Notes: generated by a model not told the origin, from the sequence alone. A stretch of DNA of 64,000 nt from an uncultured Bdellovibrionales bacterium (GCA_964488025.1 CAZATJ010000003.1:4294-68293); one strand, 5' to 3'. Counted from the first letter of the stretch, positions 16,527 through 57,151 are shown. Numbers and translations are program-made.

Positions 16527-16608
16527 AACAAAAGAGGAAATGGTTTTTATACCCATCTCCTCCTTAAAATAACATTTTTTCCACCTTTTACCAAGTACTG
16601 AATTTTCA

Positions 16609-17802: not shown

Positions 17803-17860
17803 GTTTTTTGTTTTTCTCCATTCGTATTATGCCACAACGGAAACAGAATGAACAGCGTTC

Positions 17861-18265: not shown

Positions 18266-18285
18266 GAGATTCAATCGTATCCCCA

Positions 18286-18314
18286 GTTGACAAAACTGAC
18301 AGCTGTGATATACT
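18286..18314 (+). promoter_or_regulatory. Sigma70-like promoter for rpmA
   Basis: TTGACA (18286-18291), a 17-nt spacer and TATACT (18309-18314). Confidence 0.55.
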
Positions 18315-18364
18315 CCCTCTACAGTATATCGCAATTTTCCTAATGTGTAAGCTCCTATACGGTT

Positions 18365-18661
18365 ATGGCAACCAGAAAAGCAGGTGGATCAACCGCCCTC
18401 GGCCGTGATTCCATTTCTAAACGTCTCGGCGTCAAGATTTTCGGCAATCAGGCAGTTTCCGTCGGTAACATCATTATTCGCCAGCGTGGCACCCAATTCC
18501 ACCCAGGAAAGAACGTGAAGCAGGGCGAGGATGATACGCTCTTCTCAATGGTGAATGGTTTCGTGGAGTTTCAAGCTCGCAAGGTCAAGGATTTTACCGG
18601 CAAGATTGTTTCGCGGACATTCGTGAACGTCACCTCGGAAAAAAAGAAGGAACAGAACTAG
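18365..18661 (+). CDS. rpmA: 50S ribosomal protein L27
   Basis: It translates as [24 protein letters not shown]...[16 protein letters not shown]. Confidence 0.9.
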
Positions 18662-18682
18662 CTTTTTTCGAAACACTCTAAA

Positions 18683-18714
18683 AACACCCCAAACTTGTTG
18701 AAGGGTGTTTTTTG
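18683..18714. terminator. Hairpin plus T-run between the convergent genes rpmA and pyrG
   Basis: aacaccc-13 nt loop-gggtgtt, followed by tttttg. Confidence 0.5.
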
Positions 18715-18725
18715 TTACTTGTTTT

Positions 18726-20363
18726 CTATCTTTTTTTCTTGCACGCTTCAAGGAAGGCGACGAAGAGCGGGTGCGGATGAAGCAGAGAAGATTGGAACTC
18801 CGGGTGGAACTGCGTAGCCAGAAAGAAAGGGTGCTGTTCTTTTGGAAGTTCGGCGATTTCCATCAGGATACCATCAGGAGAAGTCGCCGAAAAAATCATC
18901 CCAGCCTCCCTGAGCCGTTCGACATACTCAGGGTTTACTTCGTATCGATGGCGATGGCGCTCTAGGATATTTGTTATCCCATAGGCTTTGGCGGCCAGTG
19001 TTTTCGGTACGATTCTTGCCGCATAATGACCGAGACGCATAGTAGCACCGTAATTCTTCTTTCGAAGATTCTCTTTCTGCTCCGGCATGATATCGACTAC
19101 CGGATAAGGGGTCTTCTGATTAACTTCAGTGGTATGGGCCTCGGTCAGCCCGACGACATGACGGGCGTATTCGATAACGGCCAGCTGCATTCCATAGCAT
19201 AGTCCGAAATAAGGAATCTTATTTTTACGACAAAATTCTATAGCATTAATTTTCCCCTCTATTCCACGGCTACCGAACCCGCCTGGGATCAGGATGCCGT
19301 CGTATTTTTTCAGTATTTTCAAATGTTTGGCACTCCCTTCGAAATCCGTACTGTCAATCCAGGTGAGTTCCGCCCTACGCCCCACCGCGCAGGCTGCGGC
19401 TTTCAGCGCTTCGATAACGCTGATGTAAGCATCAGAAAGAACAAAATCCCCCGTTTTGAAGTATTTTCCGACAATACCGATCTTCACCGTTTTCTTGGCT
19501 GCCCTGATTCGGCGGACTTGTTTCTCCCAAGATCCCAATCCTATGGCTTTTTTCGTCTTGAGACTGAGTTTTTGGAGAAGAATATCACCCAAATGATCCT
19601 TTTCAAAATTCACCGGAACATCGTAAATGCTCTCTACGTCCGGAGCGCTGATGACATCTTCTCGGTGAACATTGCAGAAAACAGCAATCTTTTCCTTGCG
19701 TTTCTCATCGAGCGGCCGATCAGCTCGAGCAATGATGATATCTGGCTGAATACCTGTCCCGTTGAGCGTGCGCACGGCATGCTGGGTCGGTTTGGTCTTC
19801 ATTTCTCCGACTTTGGAGGGTGTGGGGATATAGCTCACGATAGCCGTGATGACATCTTCCGGATTTTCGATCTTGAGCATGCGGATAGCTTCCAAAAAAA
19901 GAATATTTTCATATTCCCCGACGGTGCCCCCGATTTCGATGATAGCGATATCGGCATCGGCCCGAAGAACAGCTCGTTTGATCCGACTGATTACTTCCAA
20001 CGGAATATGAGGCACCACCTGGACACAGCGACCCGCATATTCGAGATTGCGTTCCTTTTCAATGACCGTCTTATAGACCAGTCCGGTCGTCATATAATTA
20101 TCCCGGGTGAGTTCAATATTCAGGAATCGCTCATAATTTCCCATGTCCTGGTCGGTCTCATAGCCGTCTTTCAGAACGAACACCTCTCCATGCTCTGTTG
20201 GGTTCATGGTTCCGGCATCAACATTGATATAGGGATCGATCTTGAGGGCCGTGACTTTGAAACCTCTCGACTGCAGAATTTTTCCAATTGACGAAGTGGC
20301 AATACCCTTACCAACACCGCTCATCACCCCACCAACCACAAAAATATATTTTGTCTGCCTCAT
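18726..20363 (-). CDS. pyrG: CTP synthase
   Basis: It has KYIFVVGGVMSGVGKG and a glutamine amidotransferase C-domain (GLCYGMQ). Confidence 0.9.
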   Translation of the reverse strand: MRQTKYIFVVGGVMSGVGKGIATSSIGKILQSRGFKVTALKIDPYINVDAGTMNPTEHGEVFVLKDGYETDQDMGNYERFLNIELTRDNYMTTGLVYKTVIEKERNLEYAGRCVQVVPHIPLEVISRIKRAVLRADADIAIIEIGGTVGEYENILFLEAIRMLKIENPEDVITAIVSYIPTPSKVGEMKTKPTQHAVRTLNGTGIQPDIIIARADRPLDEKRKEKIAVFCNVHREDVISAPDVESIYDVPVNFEKDHLGDILLQKLSLKTKKAIGLGSWEKQVRRIRAAKKTVKIGIVGKYFKTGDFVLSDAYISVIEALKAAACAVGRRAELTWIDSTDFEGSAKHLKILKKYDGILIPGGFGSRGIEGKINAIEFCRKNKIPYFGLCYGMQLAVIEYARHVVGLTEAHTTEVNQKTPYPVVDIMPEQKENLRKKNYGATMRLGHYAARIVPKTLAAKAYGITNILERHRHRYEVNPEYVERLREAGMIFSATSPDGILMEIAELPKEQHPFFLATQFHPEFQSSLLHPHPLFVAFLEACKKKR

Positions 20364-20406
20364 TTTTTGTTTCGTCATAACTTCATCAATAGATGGTTTA
20401 CAGAGA

Positions 20407-20445
20407 AAGAGCCGCTACCAGTGGTGATTGGAGGGCGGCTCTTTG
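20407..20445 (-). terminator. Rho-independent terminator after rplI
   Basis: A gagccgc...gcggctc hairpin, followed on the minus strand by TTTCTCTGT. Confidence 0.45.
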
Positions 20446-20464
20446 AAAGTTACTCGTCTTCGAA

Positions 20465-20905
20465 CTATTCCGCTTCTATCACAAGCTCGAAAGAAGCCTT
20501 CACGCCATGACCGAAGTCAGCCAAAAGGGGAAATGTTCCCACTTCTTTGAACGCTTTTTCAAGCACGAGCACATGCTTATCCACCTTGATTCCCAGAGCT
20601 TCTAGGGCAGCGACGACTTCTTCACGTCCCACAGAACCGAAAAGTTTTCCCTTTTCAGACTTGCTTTTGATTACCACTTTCTTGCCGGAAAGTGCTGTCG
20701 CTGTCGCGCGACTTTCTTCAACAGCCTGCGTCGCTTCCTCCTTGTGTTTCGCTACGAACCGTTCCGCCTGTTTCAGCGCACCTGGCGTCGCCAAATCAGC
20801 CAATCCCTCCGGGAGGAGATAATTAAATCCGTACCCATCCTTCACTTCCTTGATGTCCAGAGCTTTTCCCAGACCCCTCACATCTTCCAAAAGAATCACT
20901 TTCAT
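20465..20905 (-). CDS. rplI: 50S ribosomal protein L9
   Basis: It starts MKVILLEDVRGLGKALDIKEVKDGYGFNYLLP. Confidence 0.88.
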   Translation of the reverse strand: MKVILLEDVRGLGKALDIKEVKDGYGFNYLLPEGLADLATPGALKQAERFVAKHKEEATQAVEESRATATALSGKKVVIKSKSEKGKLFGSVGREEVVAALEALGIKVDKHVLVLEKAFKEVGTFPLLADFGHGVKASFELVIEAE

Positions 20906-21078: not shown

Positions 21079-22965
21079 ATGCTCCCCATAAAAAACTATC
21101 AGGGTTTATTAGTCTTCGAAAGAAAGGATAAGGTGCATCTTTTTTGGCGTTCGACCGAAAAATCCGTTCCCGGTATTTTTTCCGTGGAAAGCAACGATGG
21201 TAAGAAGTTCAAAAAACACGCTTCTTTCACGGCCCTCTTCCGTGCCGATGGCACCAAAACAATTCTCGGCAATGCTCCAGCTCTCCGCGCCAGTACTCTC
21301 GGTACCAAAACAGTTCTTTTTTTTATCGACAACAACAATCAGGGAGTCCTCGCCACCATACGACGAGGCGATTCATGGGATATCGCGGCTGAAATACCCC
21401 TGTTCCGCAGCCCGACTGTTTTCGTCAAGCTCCCAGCTAAGGCTGGGAAAAAGCCTGTTGTTATCGCTTTTTCTGCCCGTAACAGCAAGACAATCTTTCA
21501 GGCTCATGCTTCCGACATACTGAAACATTTCCGAGATGTCGGAGATGTCCTCGAAGCGAAACGGGGCGCCTTCGATACTTCCACCCTCCTTCCGCTCTCT
21601 GCCGAAGTCATTCCTCAGGGGATACTACTTGTTTATTCAGCCAAAAATCCAGCTGGAAAATTAACAGTCGGAGCCGCTCTTTTTGATCGGGAGCATCCCA
21701 AAAAACTTCTCTGGCGGAGCGAAAGAGCTCTTTGGGAGGCGCCAGTGAAAACATCATCGGATACTACTGTACTCGGCGGCGTTTCCATCGGAAAATACTT
21801 TTTCATCTACATTCAGTCTCGAGGGAAACCCATCGAATGTTTCCCTATCGCCCGTTACTGGGAAACGATTGCCAAAAATGAGCCAAATAAGCTCGTACTG
21901 CCCCGACGCAAGAAGGGTATACGCATACCACTCGAGCGCTCCCTGGCAAATCCGGTTCTGGAACCCATCACTAAAAATTCCTGGGAGGCGTTCGCCACGT
22001 TCAATCCGGCCGCCCTATGCCTCGATGATCGGGTACACCTTCTCTATCGTGCCCAAGGGTATGATGGACTTTCTGTCCTGGGGTATGCTTCGAGCTCCGA
22101 TGGCATCCACATCGATGAGAGGCACAGTCATCCAGCATTTATTTCTTCCCGCCCCTTCGACATCAAAGAATCCACAGCCCGTAAGAGCGCTCATCCTTAT
22201 GTTTCCGGAGGCGGTACTAGCGGCTGTGAAGATCCTCGCCTCGTAGCGATTGACGGCTCCATATATCTCATCTATATCGCCTTTGACGGAAACAACCCAC
22301 CCGGTGTCGCCCTCTCCTATATCTCGAAAGCGAACTTTCTCGCAAAACACTGGAAATGGTCTCAACCAAGACTCATTTCACAACCCCGGCAAATTCAAAA
22401 AAACTGGGTATTGTTCCCAGAAAAAATAAACGGCAAGTATGCCATACTTCACGGCTTGAGCCCGAAAATACGAATCGAATACGTCGATGATCCGAAAAAA
22501 CTCGGTCATGGAAATCATGTCGAAAGCCTCTCTTCCCACGGTGGAGGCGGCTATATCGAATCAAAACGCCTCAATGCCTGGGATAACATTGTCCGAGGTG
22601 TCGGGGCTCCACCGCTCAAAACAAAGTATGGCTGGCTTATCTTCTATCACGGCATGGATATGCGTGATCCGGGAAAATACAAGGTCGGCGCCATGCTTCT
22701 TGACCTTGAACACCCGGAAAACATTCTCTACCGCGCCGTAGAGCCGGTACTCGAACCGGAAACGGATTATGAAAACAACGGACATAAACGGGGCGTCATC
22801 TATGTCTGCGGCGCCGTAATCAAAGGGAAGAAACTTCTCGTCTACTATGGTGCCGCCGATCGCACCTCAGCTGTCGCTTCGTCCGATCTTGAGACGTTCT
22901 TGCAAGACCTCCTCAAAAACAAAACACCCGTTCTCCAAAAAATGAACGTCACCAAGAAATCTTAA
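21079..22965 (+). CDS. Two-domain protein with a divergent N-terminal domain and a C-terminal GH130-family (PF04041-like) beta-propeller domain
   Basis: The C-domain has NPVLEPI..WEA.ATFNPAAL..D.RVHLLYRA, GCEDPRLV and YYGAAD. These are hallmarks of glycoside hydrolase family 130 / mannoside phosphorylase-like proteins. Confidence 0.65.
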   Translation: MLPIKNYQGLLVFERKDKVHLFWRSTEKSVPGIFSVESNDGKKFKKHASFTALFRADGTKTILGNAPALRASTLGTKTVLFFIDNNNQGVLATIRRGDSWDIAAEIPLFRSPTVFVKLPAKAGKKPVVIAFSARNSKTIFQAHASDILKHFRDVGDVLEAKRGAFDTSTLLPLSAEVIPQGILLVYSAKNPAGKLTVGAALFDREHPKKLLWRSERALWEAPVKTSSDTTVLGGVSIGKYFFIYIQSRGKPIECFPIARYWETIAKNEPNKLVLPRRKKGIRIPLERSLANPVLEPITKNSWEAFATFNPAALCLDDRVHLLYRAQGYDGLSVLGYASSSDGIHIDERHSHPAFISSRPFDIKESTARKSAHPYVSGGGTSGCEDPRLVAIDGSIYLIYIAFDGNNPPGVALSYISKANFLAKHWKWSQPRLISQPRQIQKNWVLFPEKINGKYAILHGLSPKIRIEYVDDPKKLGHGNHVESLSSHGGGGYIESKRLNAWDNIVRGVGAPPLKTKYGWLIFYHGMDMRDPGKYKVGAMLLDLEHPENILYRAVEPVLEPETDYENNGHKRGVIYVCGAVIKGKKLLVYYGAADRTSAVASSDLETFLQDLLKNKTPVLQKMNVTKKS

Positions 22966-22975
22966 TCATCACCCT

Positions 22976-24901
22976 ATGTCTTTTTTCAAGCGATCATTCG
23001 AAAATCCGATACTCGTCCCTCAGAGTGACCTGCCCTGGGAACTTGATGGCGCCTTTAATGGCTGTCCTATCCGCGAAAAAGGCAAGACTCGACTCTTTTA
23101 TCGAGCCCAATCCCTGCCGCTGCTTCATGAGGATGGTCCATGGCTTTCCATCTCTTCTATCGGTCAAACAGAAAGCCAAGACGGTATCCATTTCAAGCAG
23201 CACCGACCCTTTATCGAGCCAGAACTGCCGTGGGAACGTTTCGGGTGCGAAGATCCGCGCATTACCAAGTGCGACGGTAAATACTACCTTTTCTACACGG
23301 CACTTTCTGAATTTCCTTTCCGTGCCGAAGGTATTTCCGTGGGTCTCGCCATCACTAAAGACTTCAAACGCGTAGAAAAACATCACATCACACCTTTCAA
23401 TGCTAAGGCCATGACACTTTTCCCTGAACGCATCAATGGAAAACTCTGGGCCATCCTTTCTGCCAACACTGACCGACCGCCCTCCACGATCGCACTCGCA
23501 TCGTTCGATCAAGAATCCGATCTCTGGGATACGGAACGTTGGCATACCTGGTATAAAAATCTTGAAAAACACGGTCTCGAACTGAGCCGAAACGATGAAG
23601 ATCACGTCGAAATCGGGGCACCGCCTATCAAAACAAAAGAAGGCTGGCTCCTGCTCTATTCCTATATTCAGAAATACCACTCGCCGAATCCCATTTTTAC
23701 CGTCGAGGCGATATTGCTCGCGCTCGATAATCCGAAAAAAATCATCGCTCGCACCAGTGCTCCACTTCTCGTTCCGGAGGAAGAATACGAATACTATGGC
23801 AAAGTAAAAGATATCGTGTTTCCGAGTGGCGCGGTCGTCCGCGGCGACACTATCTTTCTCTACTACGGCGCAGCTGATACTACCACATGCGTGGCAACAG
23901 GCAGCCTGAAAAAACTCCTCGAATCTATGCTGGAGAAGAAGGACCAGCGCCCCACCTTCAGCCGTTATCGAAAAAACCCCATTCTCGAACCTATTGCAAA
24001 ACACGATTGGGAAGCCAAAGGGGTCTTTAATCCTGCTGCCGTCGATGTCGACGGAAAAGTTCATATCCTGTATCGCGCCGTTTCAGAAGATGATACCTCG
24101 GTGTTCGGTTATGCCGAAAGCAAGAATGGTTTCAAAATTTCAAAACGACTCCCGGATCCGGTCTATATGCCACGAGCTCCCTTCGAACAGAAACAGGCTC
24201 CGGGAAATTCCGGGGTCGAAGATCCCCGACTGACCCGTTTCGGTGACACCTACTACATGCTCTATACGGCCGTCGATGCAGTCACACCTCCACGGGTAGC
24301 CCTCACGACTATTTCGGCTAATGATTTTCTGGCTGGACAGTTTAATGCGTTTAGTCCGCCAGTGCTCATCTCCCAACCCAATATTGATGATAAAGACGCC
24401 TGCCTTTTCCCTGAAAAAATCGGTGGGAAATATGTCATTCTCCACCGTATCCAACCCGCTATCGATATCAATTTCCTTGATAGTCTCGATTATCTCGATG
24501 GACAAACCGAATTTCTGACTCATCAGCCTTTCATTTTCCCGCGTCGCGGGATGTGGGACAGTCGAAAAATAGGTATCAACACTATCCCTCTGCGAACTGC
24601 CAAAGGCTGGCTTATCCTGTACCACGGCGTTTCAGAATACGACGGCCACTATCGTATCGGGGCCCTCCTTCTTGATTTGGAACACCCGGAACGGGTCATT
24701 GGCCGTAGCCGTTATCCCATTTTCAGCCCCGAAACGGATTATGAACGTGTCGGCGTCGTACCCAATGTCGTTTTTCCTTGCGGCGCCATCGTACGAAAAA
24801 GAAAGCTCATCACCTATTACGGCGGAGCTGATCGCGTCATCGGTGTTGCCAGCATTGATTTACCAAAACTCTTGAAGACACTGCTTGCTGACGGAGTATA
24901 G
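22976..24901 (+). CDS. Protein with two tandem GH130-family domains, paralogous to the upstream gene
   Basis: Both halves carry NPIL.P...WE...FN, GCEDPRIT / GVEDPRLT and YYG(A/G)AD. Confidence 0.65.
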   Translation: MSFFKRSFENPILVPQSDLPWELDGAFNGCPIREKGKTRLFYRAQSLPLLHEDGPWLSISSIGQTESQDGIHFKQHRPFIEPELPWERFGCEDPRITKCDGKYYLFYTALSEFPFRAEGISVGLAITKDFKRVEKHHITPFNAKAMTLFPERINGKLWAILSANTDRPPSTIALASFDQESDLWDTERWHTWYKNLEKHGLELSRNDEDHVEIGAPPIKTKEGWLLLYSYIQKYHSPNPIFTVEAILLALDNPKKIIARTSAPLLVPEEEYEYYGKVKDIVFPSGAVVRGDTIFLYYGAADTTTCVATGSLKKLLESMLEKKDQRPTFSRYRKNPILEPIAKHDWEAKGVFNPAAVDVDGKVHILYRAVSEDDTSVFGYAESKNGFKISKRLPDPVYMPRAPFEQKQAPGNSGVEDPRLTRFGDTYYMLYTAVDAVTPPRVALTTISANDFLAGQFNAFSPPVLISQPNIDDKDACLFPEKIGGKYVILHRIQPAIDINFLDSLDYLDGQTEFLTHQPFIFPRRGMWDSRKIGINTIPLRTAKGWLILYHGVSEYDGHYRIGALLLDLEHPERVIGRSRYPIFSPETDYERVGVVPNVVFPCGAIVRKRKLITYYGGADRVIGVASIDLPKLLKTLLADGV

Positions 24902-24916
24902 AAAAGACTAAAACAG

Positions 24917-24950
24917 TAAAAGAGGCCCCACTTCAAGGGACCTCTTTTTT
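24917..24950 (+). terminator. Rho-independent terminator after the GH130 pair
   Basis: agaggcccc...gggacctct hairpin followed by tttttt. Confidence 0.55.
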
Positions 24951-25046
24951 GGTGGACCACATCCTACTCAGTTGGAACTGTATTATAGCAGAACTCTCGG
25001 CTTGGCAGGAACTCGGCATGGCTATTGAGCAGGCTCAGCCAACGCA
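24951..25046. repeat. Repeat R1 (~95 bp), copy 1 of 2
   Basis: It is about 78-80% identical to 25991-26087 by hand alignment. It lies immediately 3' of the minus-strand gene 25047-25508. Confidence 0.7.
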
Positions 25047-25508
25047 TTAAACTAAAGATAGGTCGCCACTGATGATCTGAGGATGCATTCCAAGAATCTC
25101 TTGTTTGTAGGACAGCTCAGACGATACTGGATTTAAAATATAGATCTTCTTCTTCAAATAGAAAGCGACTCCGATTTCAATCAAAGTATTACCACCGACA
25201 TAACCGTTAATACCTCTTTTTTCGTGGTTGACGACCAAAATTCCATCACACCAGTCAATTTTTTCATAATGATCATTAATAGCCCCTTCTTTCATATTCC
25301 AAATCTTGTGTCCTACTGGAAACGCATCAATACCACCATTCTGTTCAATGTATTGACCGAAATAAACTTTCTTGCCACCCCCAAATTCTTTCGGTACTTC
25401 GAGAGCAAGTTCTGGAATTTTGACTTCGTGACCTTGTTTTACTAGTTCGTCTCTAGCTGATTCCATTTCTTTATAAAATCCAATGCTACCGCAAATTGTT
25501 ATTTTCAT
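25047..25508 (-). CDS. Nucleoside 2-deoxyribosyltransferase-like (Rossmann-like) protein
   Basis: It starts MKITICGSI and later reads DGILVV...GGNTLIEIGVAFYLKKKIYIL. This matches the pattern of the NDT/DNPH1-like fold. The family assignment is tentative. Confidence 0.45.
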   Translation of the reverse strand: MKITICGSIGFYKEMESARDELVKQGHEVKIPELALEVPKEFGGGKKVYFGQYIEQNGGIDAFPVGHKIWNMKEGAINDHYEKIDWCDGILVVNHEKRGINGYVGGNTLIEIGVAFYLKKKIYILNPVSSELSYKQEILGMHPQIISGDLSLV

Positions 25509-25510
25509 AA

Positions 25511-25972
25511 TTAAATAATTTTAAGTTCTTTCAACCACTCATACCAAACCGGCTCAAGCCCAGGCGATTTCTCCCAATCATCGTGGCTGATATCTCCACG
25601 AACATACTCCTCAGTTTTGACTGCGAGTAGTAATAAATCATCTTTTTTACAAAAAATCGCCTGCTTTGTTTCGTCATTACTTCTTTTTACCTCGCCAAAG
25701 ACTTCAATCTGATAGATTTTCCAATAGTGCCAACTTCCACCTTCGCGCCTACAAATGTTTTCTTTTCGTCCCTCAGTTAAAAGTTTTATATTCTGTGCCT
25801 CCAGTCCGACCTCCTCCTCTAACTCTCTTTTTGCTGATTCTTCAAAAGAATTATCTCCATCAATATGGCCAGCTGGTGGCGCAAAACCAAATGGCGGTTT
25901 TTTCCTTTCTATAAGCAATAAACTACCCTCTCTCCAAACTAACATTCCTACACTGGTATGATCACATTTCAT
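25511..25972 (-). CDS. NUDIX hydrolase
   Basis: The Nudix box is GHIDGDNSFEESAKRELEEEVGL. Confidence 0.8.
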   Translation of the reverse strand: MKCDHTSVGMLVWREGSLLLIERKKPPFGFAPPAGHIDGDNSFEESAKRELEEEVGLEAQNIKLLTEGRKENICRREGGSWHYWKIYQIEVFGEVKRSNDETKQAIFCKKDDLLLLAVKTEEYVRGDISHDDWEKSPGLEPVWYEWLKELKII

Positions 25973-25990
25973 AAGGAGACTTGATAATTT

Positions 25991-26087
25991 TGTGGACTAC
26001 CTCCTACTCAATTGGAACTCTATCATAGCAGAACTGCGGGATTGGCAGGAATTGGGGATGGCTATAGAACAGGCTCGGGCAGGGTAG
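25991..26087. repeat. Repeat R2 (~95 bp), copy 2 of 2
   Basis: It is an imperfect direct repeat of R1. It lies immediately 3' of the minus-strand gene 26110-26916. Confidence 0.7.
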
Positions 26088-26109
26088 CTTTCCTACTTCC
26101 TCTACCATT

Positions 26110-26916
26110 TCAAACTCCTTTTTCATCATCAGTTTTTAGGTCCTCCTTAGCCTCCTCAACATAGTCTGCCAATTTCTTTTTCCATTTCTGTCTTGCTAAA
26201 TCATACTGAGATGGTAGATAACTTTGGTTGCTATCTTTCCTTTGTTCCGGTCGATCTAAATACACACGACGATTCTGAGTATCAAGATAGATATCGGTAT
26301 CCCCTTTCAATATTCTTGTGTTCGGTCCGGCGAGCACTACGGGTTCGAATCCTAAAACTTTTTGACAAATTTCACTGAGAAGTTTAACGGATTCCTTATA
26401 CTTTTTAAACCAAATATCTTGGCCACCAAAAATGACTGCATCGATAGAATTGTCAGCAGAAAGCTCTTTGAGTTCATTTATTCGTTTAGATAAATCTCTC
26501 CGGAACCGATCTTGATATTTACCAGAAATGGCTTTAGGATCTTGATGGCTTAAAAAAGAGATTTGTTTCTCTGTATCTCTCTGTGTTCCCACTAATATTA
26601 CACCCGTACAGTCAATGTAGTTCTGCGAAAATTTATCTTTATCATCACAACCTGAAATGATATAGGTCTTTTTATCTGGACTCACCATTGTGTCTCTGGA
26701 GCTTTCTGGAAGCCAAAAGAAATCTACGTTCTCCCCTCGATTCATGATACGCAGCATTGCTTCTGTGGATTGACTATCTCTATCGTAAGAATCAACAATA
26801 GAAGCCATAATAGGTCGAACACCCTCGGCAAGATGTTCATTGTGGAGAGGGTTTATTTCTTTTGCTTTTTCTCCTTCTGGTTTCTTTTTCCCTGCTTCAG
26901 AAAAGACTTCAAACAT
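26110..26916 (-). CDS. Hypothetical protein (268 aa), no recognisable family
   Basis: It is a long ORF that fills the interval. No motifs were recognised. Confidence 0.4.
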   Translation of the reverse strand: MFEVFSEAGKKKPEGEKAKEINPLHNEHLAEGVRPIMASIVDSYDRDSQSTEAMLRIMNRGENVDFFWLPESSRDTMVSPDKKTYIISGCDDKDKFSQNYIDCTGVILVGTQRDTEKQISFLSHQDPKAISGKYQDRFRRDLSKRINELKELSADNSIDAVIFGGQDIWFKKYKESVKLLSEICQKVLGFEPVVLAGPNTRILKGDTDIYLDTQNRRVYLDRPEQRKDSNQSYLPSQYDLARQKWKKKLADYVEEAKEDLKTDDEKGV

Positions 26917-26940
26917 AATAAATTTGATATATTACTTTTG

Positions 26941-26972
26941 TGGACCTGGGGAGAATCGAACTCCCGACTCAG
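26941..26972 (-). pseudogene. tRNA 3'-half-like fragment (T-arm plus acceptor 3' strand)
   Basis: The minus strand reads CTGAGTC-GGGAG-TTCGATT-CTCCC-CAGGTCC-A. It is complementary to the 5' half at 27105-27138. Confidence 0.5.
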
Positions 26973-27002
26973 TCCCGCACCTTTGGATCTTTATAAAATT
27001 TG

Positions 27003-27073
27003 TGGACTTACCGGGAATCGAACCCGGAACTCAGCAATGCGAATGCTGCGTGATACCATTTTACTATAAGCCC
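27003..27073 (-). tRNA. tRNA-Ala (anticodon CGC), 71 nt, CCA not encoded
   Basis: Folded by hand. The acceptor GGGCTTA/TAAGTCC includes a G3:U70 pair. The anticodon stem is CAGCA/TGCTG with loop TTCGCAT. The T-arm is CCGGG-TTCGATT-CCCGG. Confidence 0.8.
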
Positions 27074-27104
27074 AAATACAGACCGAAGATTCAAAGGTGC
27101 GGGA

Positions 27105-27138
27105 CGAATGCTGCGTAATACCACTTTACTACAGGCCC
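27105..27138 (-). pseudogene. tRNA 5'-half-like fragment (acceptor 5' strand, D-arm and anticodon 5' stem)
   Basis: The minus strand reads GGGCCTG-TA-GTAA-AGTGGTA-TTAC-G-CAGCA-TTCG. It pairs with the 3' fragment at 26941-26972, including a G3:U70 pair. Confidence 0.5.
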
Positions 27139-27146
27139 TCAAAAAA

Positions 27147-28136
27147 TCACTTCTCGCGATAGGAGGTTCTCAACTTCATTTCCCTTTCAAACCGCTCCAT
27201 AGAAAGCTCGATGAGTCTGGTGAGAAGTTCCGCATAAGAAAGTCCGCTCGCCTCCCACAGCTTGGGGTACATGCTGATAGTGGTGAATCCTGGCAGGGTA
27301 TTGATCTCATTGACGAGAATCTCTCCGTTTTCCTTCAGGAAAAAATCAACTCGACCCAGACCCTCACAAGAGAGAACTCGGAATGTCTGACGGGCGATTT
27401 CTCGTATCCGTTCTGCCGTTTCTTCAGGGAGTCTGGCTGGTATTTCAATATCCGCACCATCCTGGTCAAGATATTTGGCCTCGTAGGAGTAAAAGCCTTT
27501 TTTCGGCACCACTTCACCGAGAATAGAGGCTTGCGGATTCTCGTTTCCAAGAACAGCACACTCTATTTCCCGCCCGATGATACCTTCCTCCACCAGAACC
27601 TTTGTATCATACAAAAAGGCATCTTTCAAGGATTTTTCATACTCTTCGGCATTCTCCACCCGGTGTACGCCCACCGACGAACCAGCATTAGCTGGTTTCA
27701 CGAAGCACGGGATGCTGATATTTCTCACAATCTCATCGAAACCCGGCACGGACTTCTTGGTCACCGTCAAAAATTTCGCCACCGGTATTCCGGCATCCCG
27801 AAGCAGACGCTTCATGACGTCTTTATCCATCCCGACAGCCGACCCAAGCACCCCCGCTCCGACAAACGGAATACCGGCCAGTTTGAGCACCCCCTGCACG
27901 GTGCCATCTTCGCCGAAACCGCCATGCAGTACCGGAAAGACGATATCCACCGCCTGACGTAATTCCACTATGCTTTTCTCCGTCAAAAACCCTTCCCCCT
28001 CTTTATCGAGAGGAAGAAGTACGGATTCAAATTTCTCTGGATCCAGGTTGGCGATGACGTTCTTTGCGGACTCAAGCGATACCTCATGTTCGGTCGATTT
28101 TCCGCCAAAAAGGATTCCCACTCTCAGCTTTTTCAT
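27147..28136 (-). CDS. ddl: D-alanine--D-alanine ligase
   Basis: The ATP-grasp N-terminus reads MKKLRVGILFGGKSTEHEVSLESAKNV. Confidence 0.88.
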   Translation of the reverse strand: MKKLRVGILFGGKSTEHEVSLESAKNVIANLDPEKFESVLLPLDKEGEGFLTEKSIVELRQAVDIVFPVLHGGFGEDGTVQGVLKLAGIPFVGAGVLGSAVGMDKDVMKRLLRDAGIPVAKFLTVTKKSVPGFDEIVRNISIPCFVKPANAGSSVGVHRVENAEEYEKSLKDAFLYDTKVLVEEGIIGREIECAVLGNENPQASILGEVVPKKGFYSYEAKYLDQDGADIEIPARLPEETAERIREIARQTFRVLSCEGLGRVDFFLKENGEILVNEINTLPGFTTISMYPKLWEASGLSYAELLTRLIELSMERFEREMKLRTSYREK

Positions 28137-28155
28137 AGACGTAATCAGTTACGTA

Positions 28156-28623
28156 CTACAACTCATGCATCTCCTCGACATGGTTTTCTAACACCGAGTC
28201 ACCATCGCCAAACAAAAACTTCGTCCGAAATTTCTTACCGACCAAAAAAACTGGCAGCCAGTGGATATCATCTGGCCACATCTCATCATAGGGAATGGCA
28301 TCGGTCGTGAACCACTGCGGTCGCATTTCTTCGGTTTCGCTCGGTTCGCCCGTCCAGGTATCCACCCGAAAAACATGCACCTCTAAAACCTCCTCTGGCC
28401 TGGATTGAAAAACAAACTCATGGATACCAACTTTTTCCATTTCCATGATCTCGACACCACATTCCTCCTGCATCTCTCGCTTGGCCGCTTCTTCAATCGT
28501 TTCTCCAGCTTCCACTTTCCCGCCAAATCCATTCCACCGTCCCGCTCCGAAGCCTCGCTTTTTCATACCAAGCAGAATCTTCCCTTCATTCAAAACCAAG
28601 CAGAGTGTCAGTATTTTTCTCAT
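28156..28623 (-). CDS. NUDIX hydrolase
   Basis: The Nudix box is GGKVEAGETIEEAAKREMQEECGVE. Confidence 0.8.
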   Translation of the reverse strand: MRKILTLCLVLNEGKILLGMKKRGFGAGRWNGFGGKVEAGETIEEAAKREMQEECGVEIMEMEKVGIHEFVFQSRPEEVLEVHVFRVDTWTGEPSETEEMRPQWFTTDAIPYDEMWPDDIHWLPVFLVGKKFRTKFLFGDGDSVLENHVEEMHEL

Positions 28624-28858
28624 ATTTTATAGCGCATACAAGCCTTTTTTAACTGATCCTATTGTACCATAGAATAACTTCGTGCTATATTGGTGATACG
28701 GGGCTGGGGGATTCTGAGAGGACGCTGGTATTCGCTTGAATACCACAATTACACAACAACGTTCTGTAACCTTTCTCCTCCTCCCCTTCTCCCTTTTTGC
28801 GCAATGCGCACCCACACTGGCCTTTGGTTCCCACCAAGGCCTTTTACATTTTTTCGAC

Positions 28859-30046
28859 CTATTTTTGTTTCGCCAGTAACTCTTCGACCTTGTCTCTCAA
28901 ACCAAAAGTGCCCGTAATGAAGTTCTTACCCCGGAGACCGAGCTGAACTTCCCGAATCCGTCGAATGAGCTCTTCTCGAGGAAATACCTCTTGAGTACCT
29001 TGAATATCCGGGGCATTCTGAAGTGCCGAGCAGAGCTCATCAAAAGATTGCGCGAGCGATATCTTGAGTTTGACGGCATCGAATGAATCCGGAGTTTTTT
29101 CTTGCCTCGCCGGCTGCTGTGCCCCGCGTCCGAAGAGTCTCTGAGCGATTGAACCGAATCGCCCCTTCACTCCGCGGCTGGATAGTTTTTTATAGATCGA
29201 ACCCGACAGATCTTCTTCTATCTGGCGATATCCATGCTCATAGTGCTTCTCCCAGTCAGCCACAACAGCAACCTCACCAGTGGCGCTCCATTTGTATCCT
29301 TTGTCAATCCGGGTATTCCTGGTGATGAGATGCCGCTCTTTCTGACTCTCAAGAAAGGCCTTACCTTTCATCTCTGTTATCCCCGTATAATGGCCTTTAA
29401 GGTACGAGGGGGCATCGGCCCGATTAAATACATCATACGGCCAGAGTTTCCGATCCGACCAAGTGTCTCCCATTTTGCCAGTATTGCACATTTTCCCATT
29501 CACCGAGCCCCCTGTGCCATCGGTAATAAGTTCTCCGGCAAGGTGTCGCGCAGCATCCAGCACAAATTTCCGCTCTCTCCCTGCTTTTGAATCTTGCGTC
29601 GAAACAGCAGCCCAAGCATGGCCGAATCTCTCGTTATTCTTGTAAGCAATATTGGAGCCGAATTGGACCCGCGTTCCTTGAGGAAAGATTCCCGTATCAA
29701 TCAATTTTTCAATGATGAGCGACGCGAGCAGTGCCTGCTGTCGACACACTCCCTTACCACCACTCTTATGGAGATAATTAGTAAGCGCAGCCTTATTTGT
29801 ATCCACCCGACCATCTAAGGCGTCCTCATTCAAAGAGCCTTTTTCATAGTCATCAACCCAATTCAAATCGTAGGGCATTGCCGTTTTGACAGCCTCAAAA
29901 ACCTCATCAATGAGCAACTCAACCGACGGACGACGGTCAATCTCCAGACTATTAATATACTGCTTCAGCTCGACGAACGAGACTGGTTTCTTTCGCTCAG
30001 ACTGATTTTCTTTGGTTGCCTGTACTGGAGGATCATTCTCATACAT
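28859..30046 (-). CDS. Transglutaminase-like (papain-fold) cysteine peptidase domain protein
   Basis: It has a Cys in GKGVCRQQALLASLII, a His about 42 aa later in GHAWAAV and an Asp about 18 aa after that in FVLDAARH. This is the canonical Cys-His-Asp spacing of transglutaminase-like cores. There is no signal peptide. Confidence 0.55.
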   Translation of the reverse strand: MYENDPPVQATKENQSERKKPVSFVELKQYINSLEIDRRPSVELLIDEVFEAVKTAMPYDLNWVDDYEKGSLNEDALDGRVDTNKAALTNYLHKSGGKGVCRQQALLASLIIEKLIDTGIFPQGTRVQFGSNIAYKNNERFGHAWAAVSTQDSKAGRERKFVLDAARHLAGELITDGTGGSVNGKMCNTGKMGDTWSDRKLWPYDVFNRADAPSYLKGHYTGITEMKGKAFLESQKERHLITRNTRIDKGYKWSATGEVAVVADWEKHYEHGYRQIEEDLSGSIYKKLSSRGVKGRFGSIAQRLFGRGAQQPARQEKTPDSFDAVKLKISLAQSFDELCSALQNAPDIQGTQEVFPREELIRRIREVQLGLRGKNFITGTFGLRDKVEELLAKQK

Positions 30047-30107
30047 AGCCCAAATTATTAAAGTTGATTGATGAGTTTCGCAAAAGAGAGAAGTTTCTGG
30101 AGCATAG

Positions 30108-30380
30108 CTATTCTATTGAAATAATCTGGATACCCAGCCTGTCCACCTCTTCTTTTGAATTAAAGGTGTAAATATCTTCCAGCTTGAAACGACTAACTTC
30201 GGTCACCTGTTTCACAATTTCCCTTCCGGTATACTCTTTCTTTTCTTTATCCCATTCACGTAAAACGAGGGTATCGCCCTCGGCCACCTCAAAATCATTG
30301 AGGCGGAGCTCGTACTTTTTCTTACCAGAGACCACCTGATCAAAATACTCTGACCACAATTTTTTCTCAATCCGCGCCAT
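30108..30380 (-). CDS. DUF3850 / ASCH-like (PUA-fold) domain protein
   Basis: It reads KKYELRLNDFEVAEGDTLVLREWD...YTGREI. This matches the DUF3850 pattern K.HELKI.P.YF..V..G.K.FE.R.ND..F.VGD.L.L.EWD...YTGR. Confidence 0.6.
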   Translation of the reverse strand: MARIEKKLWSEYFDQVVSGKKKYELRLNDFEVAEGDTLVLREWDKEKKEYTGREIVKQVTEVSRFKLEDIYTFNSKEEVDRLGIQIISIE

Positions 30381-30382
30381 AG

Positions 30383-30856
30383 TTATATCTTTACCCCGAA
30401 CTTTTCAATCATCTTCAACTGATCTTTGAATGCTGAGTGGAGAGGCTTGGGTAATTTTGTCAAAGGAAACCAGGAAAGCTCTTCCATTTTTTCCGGTTCA
30501 CCGATATGCACTTTTTTCGGATTCACTTGCGCCACAAAGAGAAAGGCCACCCAGTGCGTCTCCGTATCACCGTTCATTCGAAGCACGTTACGCACCCCGC
30601 AAAACTGCAATTTCTTCGGCTTCACACAGTATTCCTCTTCTATTTCACGAACTACCGTCTGTTCTGGTGTCTCACCAAATTCCATCGATCCTGACCCAGT
30701 ATCCCACCGACCAATCTCATCACGGCAATTTTTACTGCGCTTGTGCATAAGCAAATTCCCCTGCCCATCATGACAAAAAAATACACAGGTCACCCCGATA
30801 AAATCCACACCTTTCTTCAGATCGAACGTTTTTTTCATACCTATGCTCCATGGCAC
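30383..30856 (-). CDS. NUDIX hydrolase
   Basis: The Nudix box is GSGSMEFGETPEQTVVREIEEEYCV. Confidence 0.78.
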   Translation of the reverse strand: MPWSIGMKKTFDLKKGVDFIGVTCVFFCHDGQGNLLMHKRSKNCRDEIGRWDTGSGSMEFGETPEQTVVREIEEEYCVKPKKLQFCGVRNVLRMNGDTETHWVAFLFVAQVNPKKVHIGEPEKMEELSWFPLTKLPKPLHSAFKDQLKMIEKFGVKI

Positions 30857-30934: not shown

Positions 30935-33622
30935 CTAACTCTTTCCATGGCAATGTTTGTACTTCATTTTCGAACCATCGGGTTTCGTCGCTCCGCACGG
31001 GCAAGGGTCGTTGCGACCGGTCACTTCTTCGTTGACAATAGGAGTCTGCTTAGGGGCTTCACCCGCTTGGACGCTGCCTCCCCCAGCCTGAGCCTCGCCC
31101 TTGAGCGTCGCAAACTGCTCGATATCTTCGCTGGCACCACGAAATTGCATCTCGCGCGGTTTTTCTTCTGCCAACGCACCATTATTATTTTTCTGTTCGA
31201 CTTTCAAAATCGTCATAAGATACGTCTTCCGCACCGTATCCATGAGTCCGAGAAACAAATCAAAAGCCTCACGCTTGTACTCAATAAGCGGATCGCGCTG
31301 GCCGTAACCCCGCAGCCCGATGCCCTGACGCAGGTAGTCAATCTCATCCAAATGATTCATCCACAGGGTATCGAGCGAACGCAGGTATAGCGATTTTTGA
31401 ATGGCATTCCACGTGTCTTCCCCAATGACTGACTCTTTCTGATTGTAGACTTTCTTCGCCTCACCGAGCAGATACTCAAGTATCAGCCCGCGCTTCTCAA
31501 TCTCATCCTTGGAACGATCATCACGGATGGCCTCAAGTTTTTTGAGCGCGTCCTTCTCATTCAAGCTGGAAAACATGGCATTGGCCTCATTCACGATCTC
31601 TTGTACATTCCACTCGCCCTCTTCCACGGCAGTGTGAAACCCGATAACATGATCAAGCTCTTCGGAAATAAGGTGGAGGGTTTCGTTTTCAAAGCTCCCC
31701 ATTTCAAGAACGGCGCGGCGCTTACGATACACCACCTCGCGCTGTTTGTTCATGACATCGTCATAGTCGAGGACGTGTTTGCGAATATCAAAGTTGAAAC
31801 CCTCAATCTTCGACTGAGCGCTTTCGATAGTCTTGGAAATGATAGCATTCTGAATCGGCTCATTATCCGGCAATCCCAAAGTGGTCATCATACTCTTCAT
31901 CTTCTCCCCACCAAAACGACGCATCAGTTCGTCTTCAAGCGACACAAAAAACTGCGACGCTCCGGGGTCACCCTGCCGACCGGCGCGCCCACGAAGCTGA
32001 TTGTCAATACGGCGCGCCTCATGCCGTTCGGTTCCGATGATGAGCAGTCCGCCGACTTCCCGCACTCCGATCCCCAGTTTGATGTCAGTCCCGCGACCGG
32101 CCATGTTGGTGGCAATCGTAATCGAGCCCTTCTGCCCGGCATTGGCGATAATATGAGCTTCCCGTTCGTGATTCTTGGCATTGAGCACCTCGTGGAGAAT
32201 ACCCTCTTGTTGCAAGAGCGTGCTCAGGTACTCTGATTTTTCAATAGCCACCGTACCGATAAGAGCCGGCTGTCCGGTCGCATGAATCTCTTTGACATGC
32301 TCCACGATAGCGTGAAATTTTGCTTCTTCGGTCTTATAGATGATATCCGGCAAATCCTTCCGAGTCATCGGACGATTGGTCGGGATCTCCAAAACGTCCA
32401 ACTTGTACACCTTGGCCAATTCCTCAGCCGACGTGGTAGCGGTTCCGGTCATACCGGCCAATTTTTCATAGAGTCGAAAATAATTCTGGAAGGTGATGGT
32501 GGCCAGTGTCCGGCTCTCGCGCTGCACCGTCACCCCTTCTTTAGCCTCGATGGCTTGATGCAGTCCTTCACTATAGCGCCGTCCCGGCATAATACGACCC
32601 GTAAAATCATCAACGATAATCACCTGATCATCTTTCACCACGTAATCACGATCCAATTTGAAAATAATATGTGCCTTGAGTGATTGTTCCAAGTGGTGGA
32701 CATATTGCACGTTGCCGGAAGCATAGATGTTTTCCATCCCCAAAAGCCGCTCCACGTTATTCATACCCTCATCGGTGAGCGTTACCGCTTTCATCTTCTC
32801 ATCCACGGCATAATCCTTCTCCGGCTGAAGCAGCGGAACAATTTTAGCAAAACGCTCATAGAGTTTGGTCGACTCACTGTCCGGGGCCGAAATGATGAGC
32901 GGGGTACGCGCCTCATCGATCAAAATCGAGTCTACTTCATCGACGATGGCAAAATGCAGTTTGCGCTGAGTCATATCTTCGAGAGAGGTGACCATATTGT
33001 CACGCAGATAGTCGAACCCGAACTCGTTGTTGGTCCCGTAGGTGATGTCGGAAGCATAGGCTTCCCGGCGCGTCAGAGAGACCAGATTCTCCATCTCCAC
33101 GGTCGTTTCGTCATGATCCTCGACGTTGGATGTATAACGATAGGAGACTCCTTGACCGACAATACAGGCCGTCGTGAGGCCAAGTGCCTCATAGACTCTC
33201 CCCATCCAATTACAATCACGCTTGGCGAGATAATCATTGACCGTCACTACGTGGACGCCCTTGCCAGTCAAAGCATTGAGATAAATAGGGAGCGTCGAGG
33301 TCAGAGTCTTTCCTTCACCGGTTTTCATTTCGGCAATTTTCCCATGATGAAGCGCGATACCGCCCAAAAGCTGTACGTCATAATGCCGTTCGCCAATGAC
33401 CCGCTTGGCGACTTCTCGCACGACCGCATAGGCCTCCGGAAGGAGGTCGTCAAGCGTCTCACCAGCAACCAGACGTTTTTTAAAATCTTCCGTCTTCCCC
33501 TTTAGATCGTCGGAAGAGAGGTTCTGAAGTGCCGACTCGAAAGAATTAATCTTTTCTACCAGCGGATGGAACCTTTTTACCTCGCGCTCATTGGAACCAA
33601 AAAGTTTTTCGAGAAAAGACAT
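30935..33622 (-). CDS. secA: Preprotein translocase ATPase SecA
   Basis: It has GKIAEMKTGEGKTLTSTLP in the DEAD-like motor. The C-terminal zinc-binding tail reads CPCGATKPDGSKMKYKHCHG. Confidence 0.92.
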   Translation of the reverse strand: MSFLEKLFGSNEREVKRFHPLVEKINSFESALQNLSSDDLKGKTEDFKKRLVAGETLDDLLPEAYAVVREVAKRVIGERHYDVQLLGGIALHHGKIAEMKTGEGKTLTSTLPIYLNALTGKGVHVVTVNDYLAKRDCNWMGRVYEALGLTTACIVGQGVSYRYTSNVEDHDETTVEMENLVSLTRREAYASDITYGTNNEFGFDYLRDNMVTSLEDMTQRKLHFAIVDEVDSILIDEARTPLIISAPDSESTKLYERFAKIVPLLQPEKDYAVDEKMKAVTLTDEGMNNVERLLGMENIYASGNVQYVHHLEQSLKAHIIFKLDRDYVVKDDQVIIVDDFTGRIMPGRRYSEGLHQAIEAKEGVTVQRESRTLATITFQNYFRLYEKLAGMTGTATTSAEELAKVYKLDVLEIPTNRPMTRKDLPDIIYKTEEAKFHAIVEHVKEIHATGQPALIGTVAIEKSEYLSTLLQQEGILHEVLNAKNHEREAHIIANAGQKGSITIATNMAGRGTDIKLGIGVREVGGLLIIGTERHEARRIDNQLRGRAGRQGDPGASQFFVSLEDELMRRFGGEKMKSMMTTLGLPDNEPIQNAIISKTIESAQSKIEGFNFDIRKHVLDYDDVMNKQREVVYRKRRAVLEMGSFENETLHLISEELDHVIGFHTAVEEGEWNVQEIVNEANAMFSSLNEKDALKKLEAIRDDRSKDEIEKRGLILEYLLGEAKKVYNQKESVIGEDTWNAIQKSLYLRSLDTLWMNHLDEIDYLRQGIGLRGYGQRDPLIEYKREAFDLFLGLMDTVRKTYLMTILKVEQKNNNGALAEEKPREMQFRGASEDIEQFATLKGEAQAGGGSVQAGEAPKQTPIVNEEVTGRNDPCPCGATKPDGSKMKYKHCHGKS

Positions 33623-53103: not shown

Positions 53104-53205
53104 GTAAAAAAAGAAGGGCTCCGAAACGTTGCTTACGCATTATTTCGAAACCCTTGTGCTGGAACCGCGTCACGCTGGACGCGAGTCCCTGCCGGCCTGG
53201 CCGAC

Positions 53206-53814: not shown

Positions 53815-54036
53815 ATCGTGCTCCTTCGCACAGTGGTTGGGTGATGAGATGTGCCTGACACATCGACCCAACCGAGGTTGGATGTTCAGGCACATTTCAA
53901 ACCTTGTCGGTCGGTATCTCTTGCAAGACACCATCTGGACTCATCACTATACACCCATTTCCATTTTCTGTCAAGATGTCACTTTTTGCTCTATAAAGCC
54001 AATATTTCCTCTATCTTGCATCTGAAAATATGGCTG

Positions 54037-54822: not shown

Positions 54823-54847
54823 TGTGAACCTCCTTCTGCGGTTGAGA

Positions 54848-57133: not shown

Positions 57134-57151
57134 GATGATCCTTCCATAGGT

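Follow-up and report, generated by a model that had tools for sequence, protein, structure and literature searches.

The DNA analysed here is a stretch of 64,000 nucleotides, taken on one strand (hereafter the window), and our subject is the interval of about 6 kb between a pair of GH130 genes and secA, which an earlier note on this sequence had described as a variable island in which nearly every small gene acts on nucleotides. We find that the interval is probably a mosaic, and not one island: inherited genes for nucleotide sanitation lie next to secA, and small cassettes appear to have accreted at the 3′ end of a tRNA-Ala gene. The homologues of its SecA are named Candidatus Moranbacteria and, by those names, the host chromosome is assigned to this tiny-genome lineage of the Candidate Phyla Radiation (CPR). 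All the open reading frames (ORFs) listed by the earlier note are present and lie on the minus strand; after secA (30935-33622), they follow one another in the order of transcription as NUDIX157, a DUF3850/ASCH gene, a 395-aa ORF, NUDIX155 and ddl, then tRNA-Ala(CGC), a 268-aa ORF, NUDIX153 and an NDT-like ORF of 153 aa (NB: the number following NUDIX is the length of the ORF in residues). Five of these eight protein genes are nucleotide-related, so that 'nearly every' overstated the case, and the 268-aa ORF had gone unmentioned. Since contigs of the same strain from four samples show a gene order identical to that of the window (L081 is 99.98% identical to it over 13.8 kb), the arrangement is fixed within this population.

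Inherited genes downstream of secA

Relatives of the locus were found through SecA homologues and by look-ups of exact proteins. The synteny set consists of seven Moranbacteria (L085, L086, L087, L170, L171, L172 and L173), whose SecA proteins, ranked from the closest relative down, are 90, 89, 87, 85, 83, 81 and 78% identical to that of the window; a scan of metagenome contigs returned only distant SecA proteins (at most 62% identical) among the matches listed. The upstream flank, formed by mur genes, hpf and secA, is conserved in all seven, and the downstream flank, rplI-pyrG, is present in the four loci long enough to include it (L085, L086, L087 and L172). NUDIX155 has syntenic orthologues, 68-81% identical, in every relative, and a tRNA-Ala(CGC) gene occupies the same position in all of them, always just after NUDIX155 or ddl. 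The NUDIX157-DUF3850 pair is syntenic in the three closest relatives (L085, L170 and L086), where the NUDIX157 orthologues, 81-89% identical, stand immediately after secA; the DUF3850 orthologues, all of 90 aa and 63-80% identical, are also found in a fourth genome, L087. The ddl gene is syntenic in L085 (76%) and L171 (61%); a search of genome contigs with Ddl was of no use for synteny, its best matches (54-59% identical) being spread over many phyla. NUDIX155, tRNA-Ala(CGC), the NUDIX157-DUF3850 pair and ddl are inherited, not accessory. The description of the interval as a variable island holds for the 395-aa gene and for everything 3′ of tRNA-Ala, but not for these genes.

Families were assigned with Pfam, NCBIfam, PADLOC-DB 2.0, PHROG, Rfam, ARAGORN and sequence searches of the PDB. 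The presence of three NUDIX hydrolases was borne out: the translations of 25511-25972 (NUDIX153), 28156-28623 (NUDIX155) and 30383-30856 (NUDIX157), all on the minus strand, match PF00293 with E values of 1.9e-15, 1.6e-18 and 7.7e-18 (57.5, 67.4 and 65.2 bits; cut-off, 21.1). The REx2EE core is present in all three, as REMQEE, RELEEE and REIEEE, and a fully canonical NUDIX box is found in NUDIX155 only. Their clustering is real, since a hidden Markov model built from 16 NUDIX sequences detects only these three among the 345 ORFs of the window, all inside 5.4 kb. Two further calls also stood, namely the housekeeping gene ddl (27147-28136, minus strand; NF002525, E 2.3e-138, above cut-off, with Pfam in agreement) and the DUF3850/ASCH-like protein with a PUA fold (see below).

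The core gene NUDIX155 encodes a 155-aa protein that resembles vertebrate MTH1/NUDT1 over its full length. It matches the zebrafish, human, mouse and dog NUDT1 structures at E values from 5e-52 to 1e-47 over residues 3-155, the best being zebrafish NUDT1 (5otn; E 5.2e-52, residues 3-155 against 8-159); 26 NUDT1 sequences match at E 1.5e-47 or better, whereas the next family appears only at 3.7e-10, and the similarity to bacterial MutT (E 2.7e-7) is far weaker. Its canonical NUDIX box reads GKVEAGETIEEAAKREMQEECG, and it contains RWNGFGG (N31) and MWPDD (W116, D118 and D119), which we take to be the base-recognition residues of MTH1 (presumably Asn33, Trp117, Asp119 and Asp120 in the human numbering). 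NUDIX155 combines the full-length similarity and the base-recognition residues of the MTH1/NUDT1 subfamily, and is predicted to be a pyrophosphohydrolase of oxidized or modified purine (deoxy)nucleoside triphosphates, (d)NTPs; it differs from the vertebrate enzymes in being a bacterial (CPR) protein, known here from its sequence alone. The other two NUDIX proteins are also nearest to sanitizing enzymes of the MutT, NUDX1 and NUDT15 types: for NUDIX153 the closest solved relatives are of the 8-oxo-dGTPase and NUDX1 types, and for the MutT-like NUDIX157 of the MutT, NUDX1, NUDT15 and NUDT18 types. An ADP-ribose pyrophosphatase reading of the NUDIX genes is not favoured, the solved relatives being of the MutT, MTH1, NUDX1 and NUDT15 types. 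Counted from a GTG, the NUDIX157 ORF has 157 aa, but its orthologues and the gene calls point to a start at the ATG at 30838 and to 151 aa, the length called in the same-strain contigs.

The DUF3850/ASCH gene (30108-30380, minus strand) begins 2 nt downstream of NUDIX157 and encodes a PUA-like protein of 90 aa that matches PF12961 (E 3.5e-17, 62.8 bits; cut-off, 22.9) and PF04266, the ASCH family (E 4e-8, 34.3 bits; cut-off, 21.2), as well as the phage families phrog_986 and phrog_1812. ASCH proteins deacetylate N4-acetylcytidine (ac4C) in nucleoside salvage, and YqfB relies on a Thr-Lys-Glu triad, in which Thr24 is the nucleophile, while Arg26 provides the oxyanion hole (PMC6972931). Like YqfB-type deacetylases, the protein is a small single-domain ASCH/PUA-like protein (about 90-100 aa) in a nucleoside-salvage context, with the Lys and Arg of the G-x-K-x-x-T-x-R motif preserved. 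However, its family is PF12961 rather than the YqfB branch, its gene is coupled to that of a NUDIX protein, and its own motif, aligned by hand on the Gly (G19-K-K21-K-Y-E24-L-R26), has the DUF3850 signature K-x-x-E-x-R. As a Glu stands at the position of the nucleophilic Thr24, an amidohydrolase of the YqfB type was rejected; the protein is likely to bind or process a modified nucleoside or nucleotide.

Variable DNA at the 3′ end of tRNA-Ala

The content of the DNA 3′ of tRNA-Ala (slot B) differs in every genome. In the window it comprises the 268-aa gene, NUDIX153, the NDT-like gene and the GH130 pair; in L085, His_Phos_1 and GH130 genes; in L086, a HEPN_AbiV gene and others; in L087, an MFS transporter; in L172, QueA; in L173, a NUDIX gene and a 153-aa protein; and in L170 and L171, an element with a tyrosine integrase, a large serine recombinase and DUF5659 (15953-18882 and 17660-20524, respectively). 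The L170 and L171 elements have near-identical ends that start right after the CCA of tRNA-Ala; the recombinase ORF, as called in both, extends into the tRNA gene on the opposite strand. The two large double-GH130 genes (21079-24901, plus strand) are common only to the window and its closest relative, L085, and are absent from the interval in L086, L087 and L172, the other relatives whose fetched locus reaches rplI. The boundaries of the island, outside which the GH130 pair had been placed, therefore need shifting, because the variable zone runs from tRNA-Ala to rplI and includes the pair. Four of the eight protein genes of the window lack a counterpart at the locus in the seven relatives, with the sole exception of a cassette in L173.

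Two cassettes delimited by repeats, as the earlier note had proposed, occupy 25.0-26.9 kb. Cassette 1 carries the 268-aa gene (26110-26916, minus strand) and is closed by a 94-nt repeat, D1b (25988-26081, minus strand), which ends in GTAGTCCAC followed by AAAA, like the tRNA 3′ end. Cassette 2 carries NUDIX153, which is MutT-like, and, 2 nt downstream, the NDT-like gene (25047-25508, minus strand), and is closed by a second 94-nt repeat, D1a (24948-25041, minus strand), ending in GTGGTCCAC followed by CAAAAAA. D1a and D1b form a direct repeat, 82% identical, and D1b is 81% identical to a repeat in L173; GTCCAC followed by a run of A ends tRNA-Ala, a copy of its 3′ half, D1b and D1a alike. The composition of the cassettes is atypical: GC content at third codon positions (GC3) is 0.31-0.33 for the three genes (0.31 for the 268-aa gene and 0.33 for NUDIX153) against 0.50-0.58 for their neighbours, and the overall GC of cassettes stays at about 0.37-0.39 in hosts of differing GC. 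The cassettes are absent from six of the seven relatives. In the seventh, L173, a block of 1055 bp with NUDIX153, the NDT-like gene and the repeat is 89.5% identical to that of the window, whereas the secA DNA is only 72.7% identical; this copy, which exceeds the core genes in its similarity to the window, begins within the 3′ end of the L173 tRNA-Ala and finishes with the same repeat.

The tRNA-Ala gene itself forms an unusual nest, as the earlier note had seen. An intact tRNA-Ala(CGC) (27002-27073, minus strand; ARAGORN, and Rfam at 60.9 bits) lies within another tRNA-Ala that is disrupted in the region of its anticodon loop, the whole nest spanning 26930-27138. The outer 5′ half (27105-27138, minus strand) breaks off in the anticodon loop, is 88% identical to the 5′ half of the intact tRNA and matches the plain tRNA-Ala of L087 at 34 of 34 positions; the outer 3′ half (26930-26972, minus strand) ends in CAGGTCCAC, is 72% identical to the inner 3′ half and is 91-94% identical to the 3′ parts of the tRNAs in L086, L170 and L087. 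The outer halves keep the acceptor pairing and G3:U70, and the inner gene is flanked by 20-nt inverted repeats (27086-27105 and 26972-26991) that are 95% complementary. A weak tmRNA/tRNA-like Rfam match falls at 26938-26976. The whole architecture recurs in L085 (16217-16618), which has an additional 3′-half copy downstream, and its 5′ part in L170 (about 15990-16110) and L171 (about 17575-17745); across these three genomes the arm sequences differ yet stay complementary, and the D-loop contains additional palindromic insertions. The tRNA-Ala is plain in L086, L087, L172 and L173. The nest may be an insertion scar or a functional RNA.

Adjacency to a tRNA 3′ end, repeats that copy this end, atypical composition and variable presence are all found here, as in tRNA-linked islets; moreover, elements with a tyrosine integrase and a serine recombinase occupy the same site in two relatives, and the content differs from one relative to the next. 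The locus departs from such islets in that its tiny cassettes, of about 1 kb with one or two genes, form a tandem stack, little core sequence is shared, the tRNA-Ala is nested inside a disrupted older copy and the window carries no integrase or recombinase detectable by ORF and Pfam scans. Integron arrays likewise hold promoterless-looking cassettes of one or two genes that share one orientation and are each followed by a repeat, here of about 94 nt. Unlike these, the array is anchored on a tRNA gene and has no IntI integrase, and D1 lacks an attC-like fold: folding was not significant (z −0.22), and RNAalifold gave a positive covariation term with one compensatory pair. With neither a significant fold nor covariation, D1 was rejected as an attC-like or structured RNA; it was also rejected as a tRNA pseudogene, only its last ~10 nt being tRNA-like. 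The locus is a tRNA-anchored flexible region of an ordinary kind, in a new lineage and with an uncharacterized gene pair.

The second member of this pair had been called NDT/DNPH1-like, a placement that we regard as probable although the direct match to PF05014 (E 0.025, 15.2 bits) is under the cut-off of 28.8. It is made through three indirect similarities: a BLASTP match (E 2e-8, 40% over 58 aa) to a bona fide PF05014 protein of 129 aa in L184; a 47%-identical paralogue in L172 (L172-147), which shows the same weak PF05014 match (positions 3-96 of 117); and a distant viral relative (L183) that matches PF05014 at E 7.6e-6. No PDB match was obtained by sequence or profile. Glu111, within TLIEIG, is invariant in the family; when the family was aligned with hhalign to the sequences of DNPH1 and Lactobacillus leichmannii NDT, the E111 segment alone found a counterpart, YELG in DNPH1 and MELG in NDT, at a probability of 1% or less, which is not significant. 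The family numbers 657 homologues, of which the named ones are all Patescibacteria and the rest unnamed, has no Pfam domain, and is at least 78% identical over its top 120 clusters; the L173 protein is 97% identical to that of the window. NUDIX153 is 85% identical to NUDIX141 of L173 and 84% to the NUDIX155 of L184. The NUDIX and NDT-like pair was found in four separate genomic contexts. For example, in L174 and L175 the two genes overlap, the upstream one being recognized as NUDIX at E 1.2e-4, and in L184-L186 a tRNA-Leu and a bona fide PF05014 gene precede the pair; in L176 and L177 the NDT-like gene stands alone. From this distribution, we read cassette 2 as a widespread mobile two-gene module.

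The 268-aa product of cassette 1 belongs to an uncharacterized family of 716 representatives (E≤1e-3) without a Pfam entry, in which S88, K95, C103, S120, H124, G164, G165 and P192 are invariant, and its gene is absent from all seven relatives. Its AlphaFold2 model is of high confidence (pLDDT 92); neither Foldseek (E≤0.001) nor a profile search found a match in the PDB. BFVD gives weak matches to giant-virus proteins, among which is a 'CheD chemotaxis protein' (E 7.6e-3), and one family member matches N_Asn_amidohyd (N-terminal asparagine amidohydrolase) at 0.0035. Tentatively, the protein may thus have a CheD/NTAN1-like amidohydrolase fold, with Cys103 and His124 among its invariant residues; no nucleotide-related signature emerged from the family searches.

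Proposed nucleotide sanitation and alternative readings

In the reading that we favour, the inherited neighbourhood downstream of secA would be a set of small enzymes that sanitize or recycle nucleotides. NUDIX155 would hydrolyse oxidized or otherwise aberrant purine (d)NTPs to monophosphates, and NUDIX157 would be tightly coupled to the DUF3850/ASCH protein. The tRNA-Ala 3′ end would be a site of site-specific integration, at which two small low-GC cassettes would have been added in tandem in this genome. For cassette 2, a two-step route can be proposed, in which NUDIX153 would convert a (modified) (d)NTP to the (d)NMP and the NDT/DNPH1-like enzyme would then cleave the N-glycosidic bond, to give the free base and (deoxy)ribose-5-phosphate; an unwanted nucleotide would be removed for good and its parts recycled. 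Z-genome phages offer a direct precedent for such a route: in them a gene for a dNTP pyrophosphatase adjoins, or is fused with, that of an NDT-family dNMP N-glycosidase (PMC12884076). As for DutZ/MazZ with DmtZ in these phages (PMC12884076), and for DNPH1/Rcl, a pyrophosphohydrolase gene lies beside a gene of the NDT superfamily, the pairing recurs in several genomes and the pair is mobile. However, the pyrophosphatase of the window is a NUDIX protein and not of the Dut or MazG type, the NDT-like proteins form a separate family outside Pfam that shares about 40% identity, locally, with a member of PF05014, and the pair, predicted from sequence, resides in cellular CPR genomes and not in phages.

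Members of the CPR/Patescibacteria are thought to live on scavenged nucleotides, and many of them lack de novo nucleotide synthesis, which would make sanitizing enzymes valuable. Salvage admits oxidized, alkylated and modified nucleosides to the dNTP pool, and sanitizers of the MTH1 type are a safeguard against them (PMC12887539). Over the eight genomes, the recurring content of the locus consists of NTP pyrophosphatases (NUDIX and MazG), HD/YfbR-like, NDT-like and ASCH/PUA proteins, a classic housecleaning set. From this locus, Moranbacteria appear to maintain beside secA a dedicated and in part exchangeable complement of pool-sanitizing enzymes, one of which is closely related to MTH1, a drug target in humans. 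Modified-base housecleaning, which the earlier note had offered as an alternative to phage defence, is the better-supported reading, and a cluster of 'defence-flavoured' domains (NUDIX, ASCH and NDT) can be ordinary housecleaning; synteny in relatives is a better guide than domain content to which genes are inherited and which are cargo. The NUDIX and NDT-like pair belongs to a large, very conserved family (hundreds of clusters) that has no Pfam entry and is uncharacterized.

Several points weigh against the mosaic as we describe it. The comparison covers only seven relatives, each with 10 kb of flanking DNA, and integration is deduced from these relatives and from the repeats, as the window itself has no integrase. 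The cassette junctions have only a short core in common (about 6-10 nt), the half-copies of the tRNA may have an origin other than scarring by integration, and the 97% identity of the NDT-like protein to its L173 counterpart is weaker evidence for transfer than it seems, because the family is at least 78% identical over 120 clusters. The 395-aa and 268-aa proteins fall outside the nucleotide theme, the NDT-like assignment, although probable, is under the Pfam threshold, and the enzyme activities and substrates given above are those that we infer from sequence similarity. In addition, dependence on salvage is general knowledge for the CPR as a group, not for this genome.

The alternative that survives best is that the region is the remnant of a decayed prophage or integrative element, with the small genes as phage auxiliary cargo for nucleotide metabolism. 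All three NUDIX proteins and the DUF3850 protein have PHROG matches, distant relatives of the NDT-like protein (29-31% identity) occur on IMG/VR contigs, and the tRNA-linked repeats, the tRNA half-copies, the low GC of the cassettes and the integrase elements at the same site in L170 and L171 are all of the kind expected of such a remnant. Yet the secA side of the tRNA has a host-like GC3, NUDIX155 is syntenic down to the relative with 78% SecA identity, no structural, replication or recombinase genes are found in the window, and tblastn searches with the NDT-like, 268-aa and 395-aa proteins found no match in 50,697 GenBank phage records. We consider a remnant unlikely; it accounts for no more than the two cassettes, and for these it coincides with the mosaic reading.

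A bolder extension of the mosaic takes NUDIX and NDT-like as a Patescibacteria-specific mobile module that irreversibly destroys one non-canonical (d)NTP (from NTP through NMP to base and sugar phosphate) and spreads as tRNA-targeting mini-cassettes. Beyond housekeeping, such a module might exclude phages that use modified nucleotides, or might shield an episymbiont when the nucleotides that it takes from its host are damaged or modified. In the same reading, two further features of the locus could be new RNA biology, namely the tRNA-Ala gene nested in another and the element upstream of NUDIX155 (see below), as a previously undescribed riboswitch-like RNA that controls a sanitizer of the MTH1 type; as a whole, we regard this proposal as quite improbable.

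A further alternative, raised by the earlier note, is an island for anti-phage defence or counter-defence, whose proteins would sense or destroy phage or immune-signalling nucleotides. The three NUDIX proteins do match the PADLOC candidate PDC-S07 (E 5.4e-16, 5.9e-7 and 8.3e-4), L086 has its HEPN_AbiV-domain gene right after the tRNA, the NDT-like gene of L174 lies near a zeta toxin, the DUF3850 and NUDIX families are common in phages and the slot beside the tRNA turns over fast. However, PDC-S07 is a single-protein model of the NUDIX type and its best match is the core MTH1-like gene, so that the matches fit generic NUDIX similarity. The NDT-like, DUF3850, 395-aa and 268-aa proteins gave no PADLOC match, apart from one JAB match at E 0.026, nor did ten variable proteins of the relatives, that with HEPN_AbiV included. 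Moreover, no sensor/effector architecture, nuclease, TIR, SIR2 or cyclase was found, and the genes with the strongest nucleotide signature are the inherited, not the variable ones. A defence role for the region is thus very unlikely. A plain core operon downstream of secA, with the differences put down to assembly or annotation noise, agrees with the identical order in the four samples and with the synteny of several genes, but we give it almost no credence in view of the genes without counterparts, the strong composition break and the intact mobile elements at the same site in two relatives.

A structured RNA element and the 395-aa protein

Upstream of NUDIX155, at 28676-28812 (minus strand), lies a conserved structured non-coding element of 137 nt, recognized by its conservation and by a covariance model. 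It is 82-84% identical to its copies in L085 and L171, which exceeds the identity of the adjacent coding DNA. A model built from four copies found three more syntenic ones, in L172, L086 and L173 (E 3e-7 to 3e-5), so that the element occupies the same place, upstream of NUDIX155 or of a preceding 100-aa gene, in seven of the eight genomes (L085 14238-14377; L171 13181-13314; L170 14654-14797; L172 15055-15198; L086 14086-14210; L173 13848-13996). Two hairpins are enclosed by the pairing of a 5′ strand rich in G with a 3′ strand rich in C. In an alignment fitted to the covariance model itself, from which the covariation therefore comes, 94% of the cells are paired and 11 of the 22 pairs show compensatory changes, a level of pairing and covariation that was reached by none of 500 shuffles. 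No Rfam family matched at E≤1. The element is followed by a conserved AATATAGCA, which could be a −10 box. We propose the element as a candidate for a new cis-regulatory RNA or leader. We know of no structured RNA ahead of MTH1 or mutT genes, from which NUDIX155 would differ in this respect. Together with the nested tRNA, the element offers leads for RNA biology in an uncultured phylum.

A second variable position, slot A, lies between the DUF3850 gene and NUDIX155. Its occupants in the relatives are HD/YfbR-like proteins, MazG, paralogues of the NDT-like type, additional NUDIX genes or unknowns. In the neighbourhood as a whole, and by genome, YfbR-like/HD proteins, which we take to be dNMP nucleotidases, are found in L085, L170 and L086, MazG and two NDT-like paralogues in L172, and three NUDIX proteins and DUF7768 in L087. 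The slot right after secA holds DUF7768 in L087 (12712-13119), with an NDT-like V-L-A-E-I motif on alignment, and in L172 (13056-15026) MazG, a protein with a tRNA_bind domain and two tandem NDT-like paralogues. In the window, slot A is taken by the gene of the 395-aa near-orphan protein (28859-30046, minus strand), which is absent from all seven relatives and has a host-like GC3 of 0.495. Only two other homologues (three sequences in total) were found among 5.8 billion clusters. These three gave no Pfam match even at E≤10, and the protein has no NCBIfam, PADLOC, PHROG or PDB match; a profile search of the PDB with the alignment yielded nothing useful. Cys101, His143 and Asp164 are invariant in the family, of three sequences only, and in an AlphaFold2 model from this alignment, whose pLDDT of 43 is too low for a fold search, Cys101 lies near the start of a helix (98-117) and His143 on a strand. 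The name transglutaminase-like that the gene had been given (papain-like; PF01841) was therefore dropped, there being a Cys, a His and an Asp but no profile or fold match. Nor does the trio of DUF3850, NUDIX and this protein recur, a co-occurrence that the earlier note had proposed to check: the one homologue with a known context sits among unrelated genes.

At the other end of the interval, an intrinsic terminator hairpin of 12 bp (24918-24948, minus strand) separates the cassette array from the convergent GH130 gene. Elsewhere in the window, at 53000-58000, where there is no rRNA or other Rfam match, GC rises to 0.55-0.59, against about 0.48 in the rest of the window.

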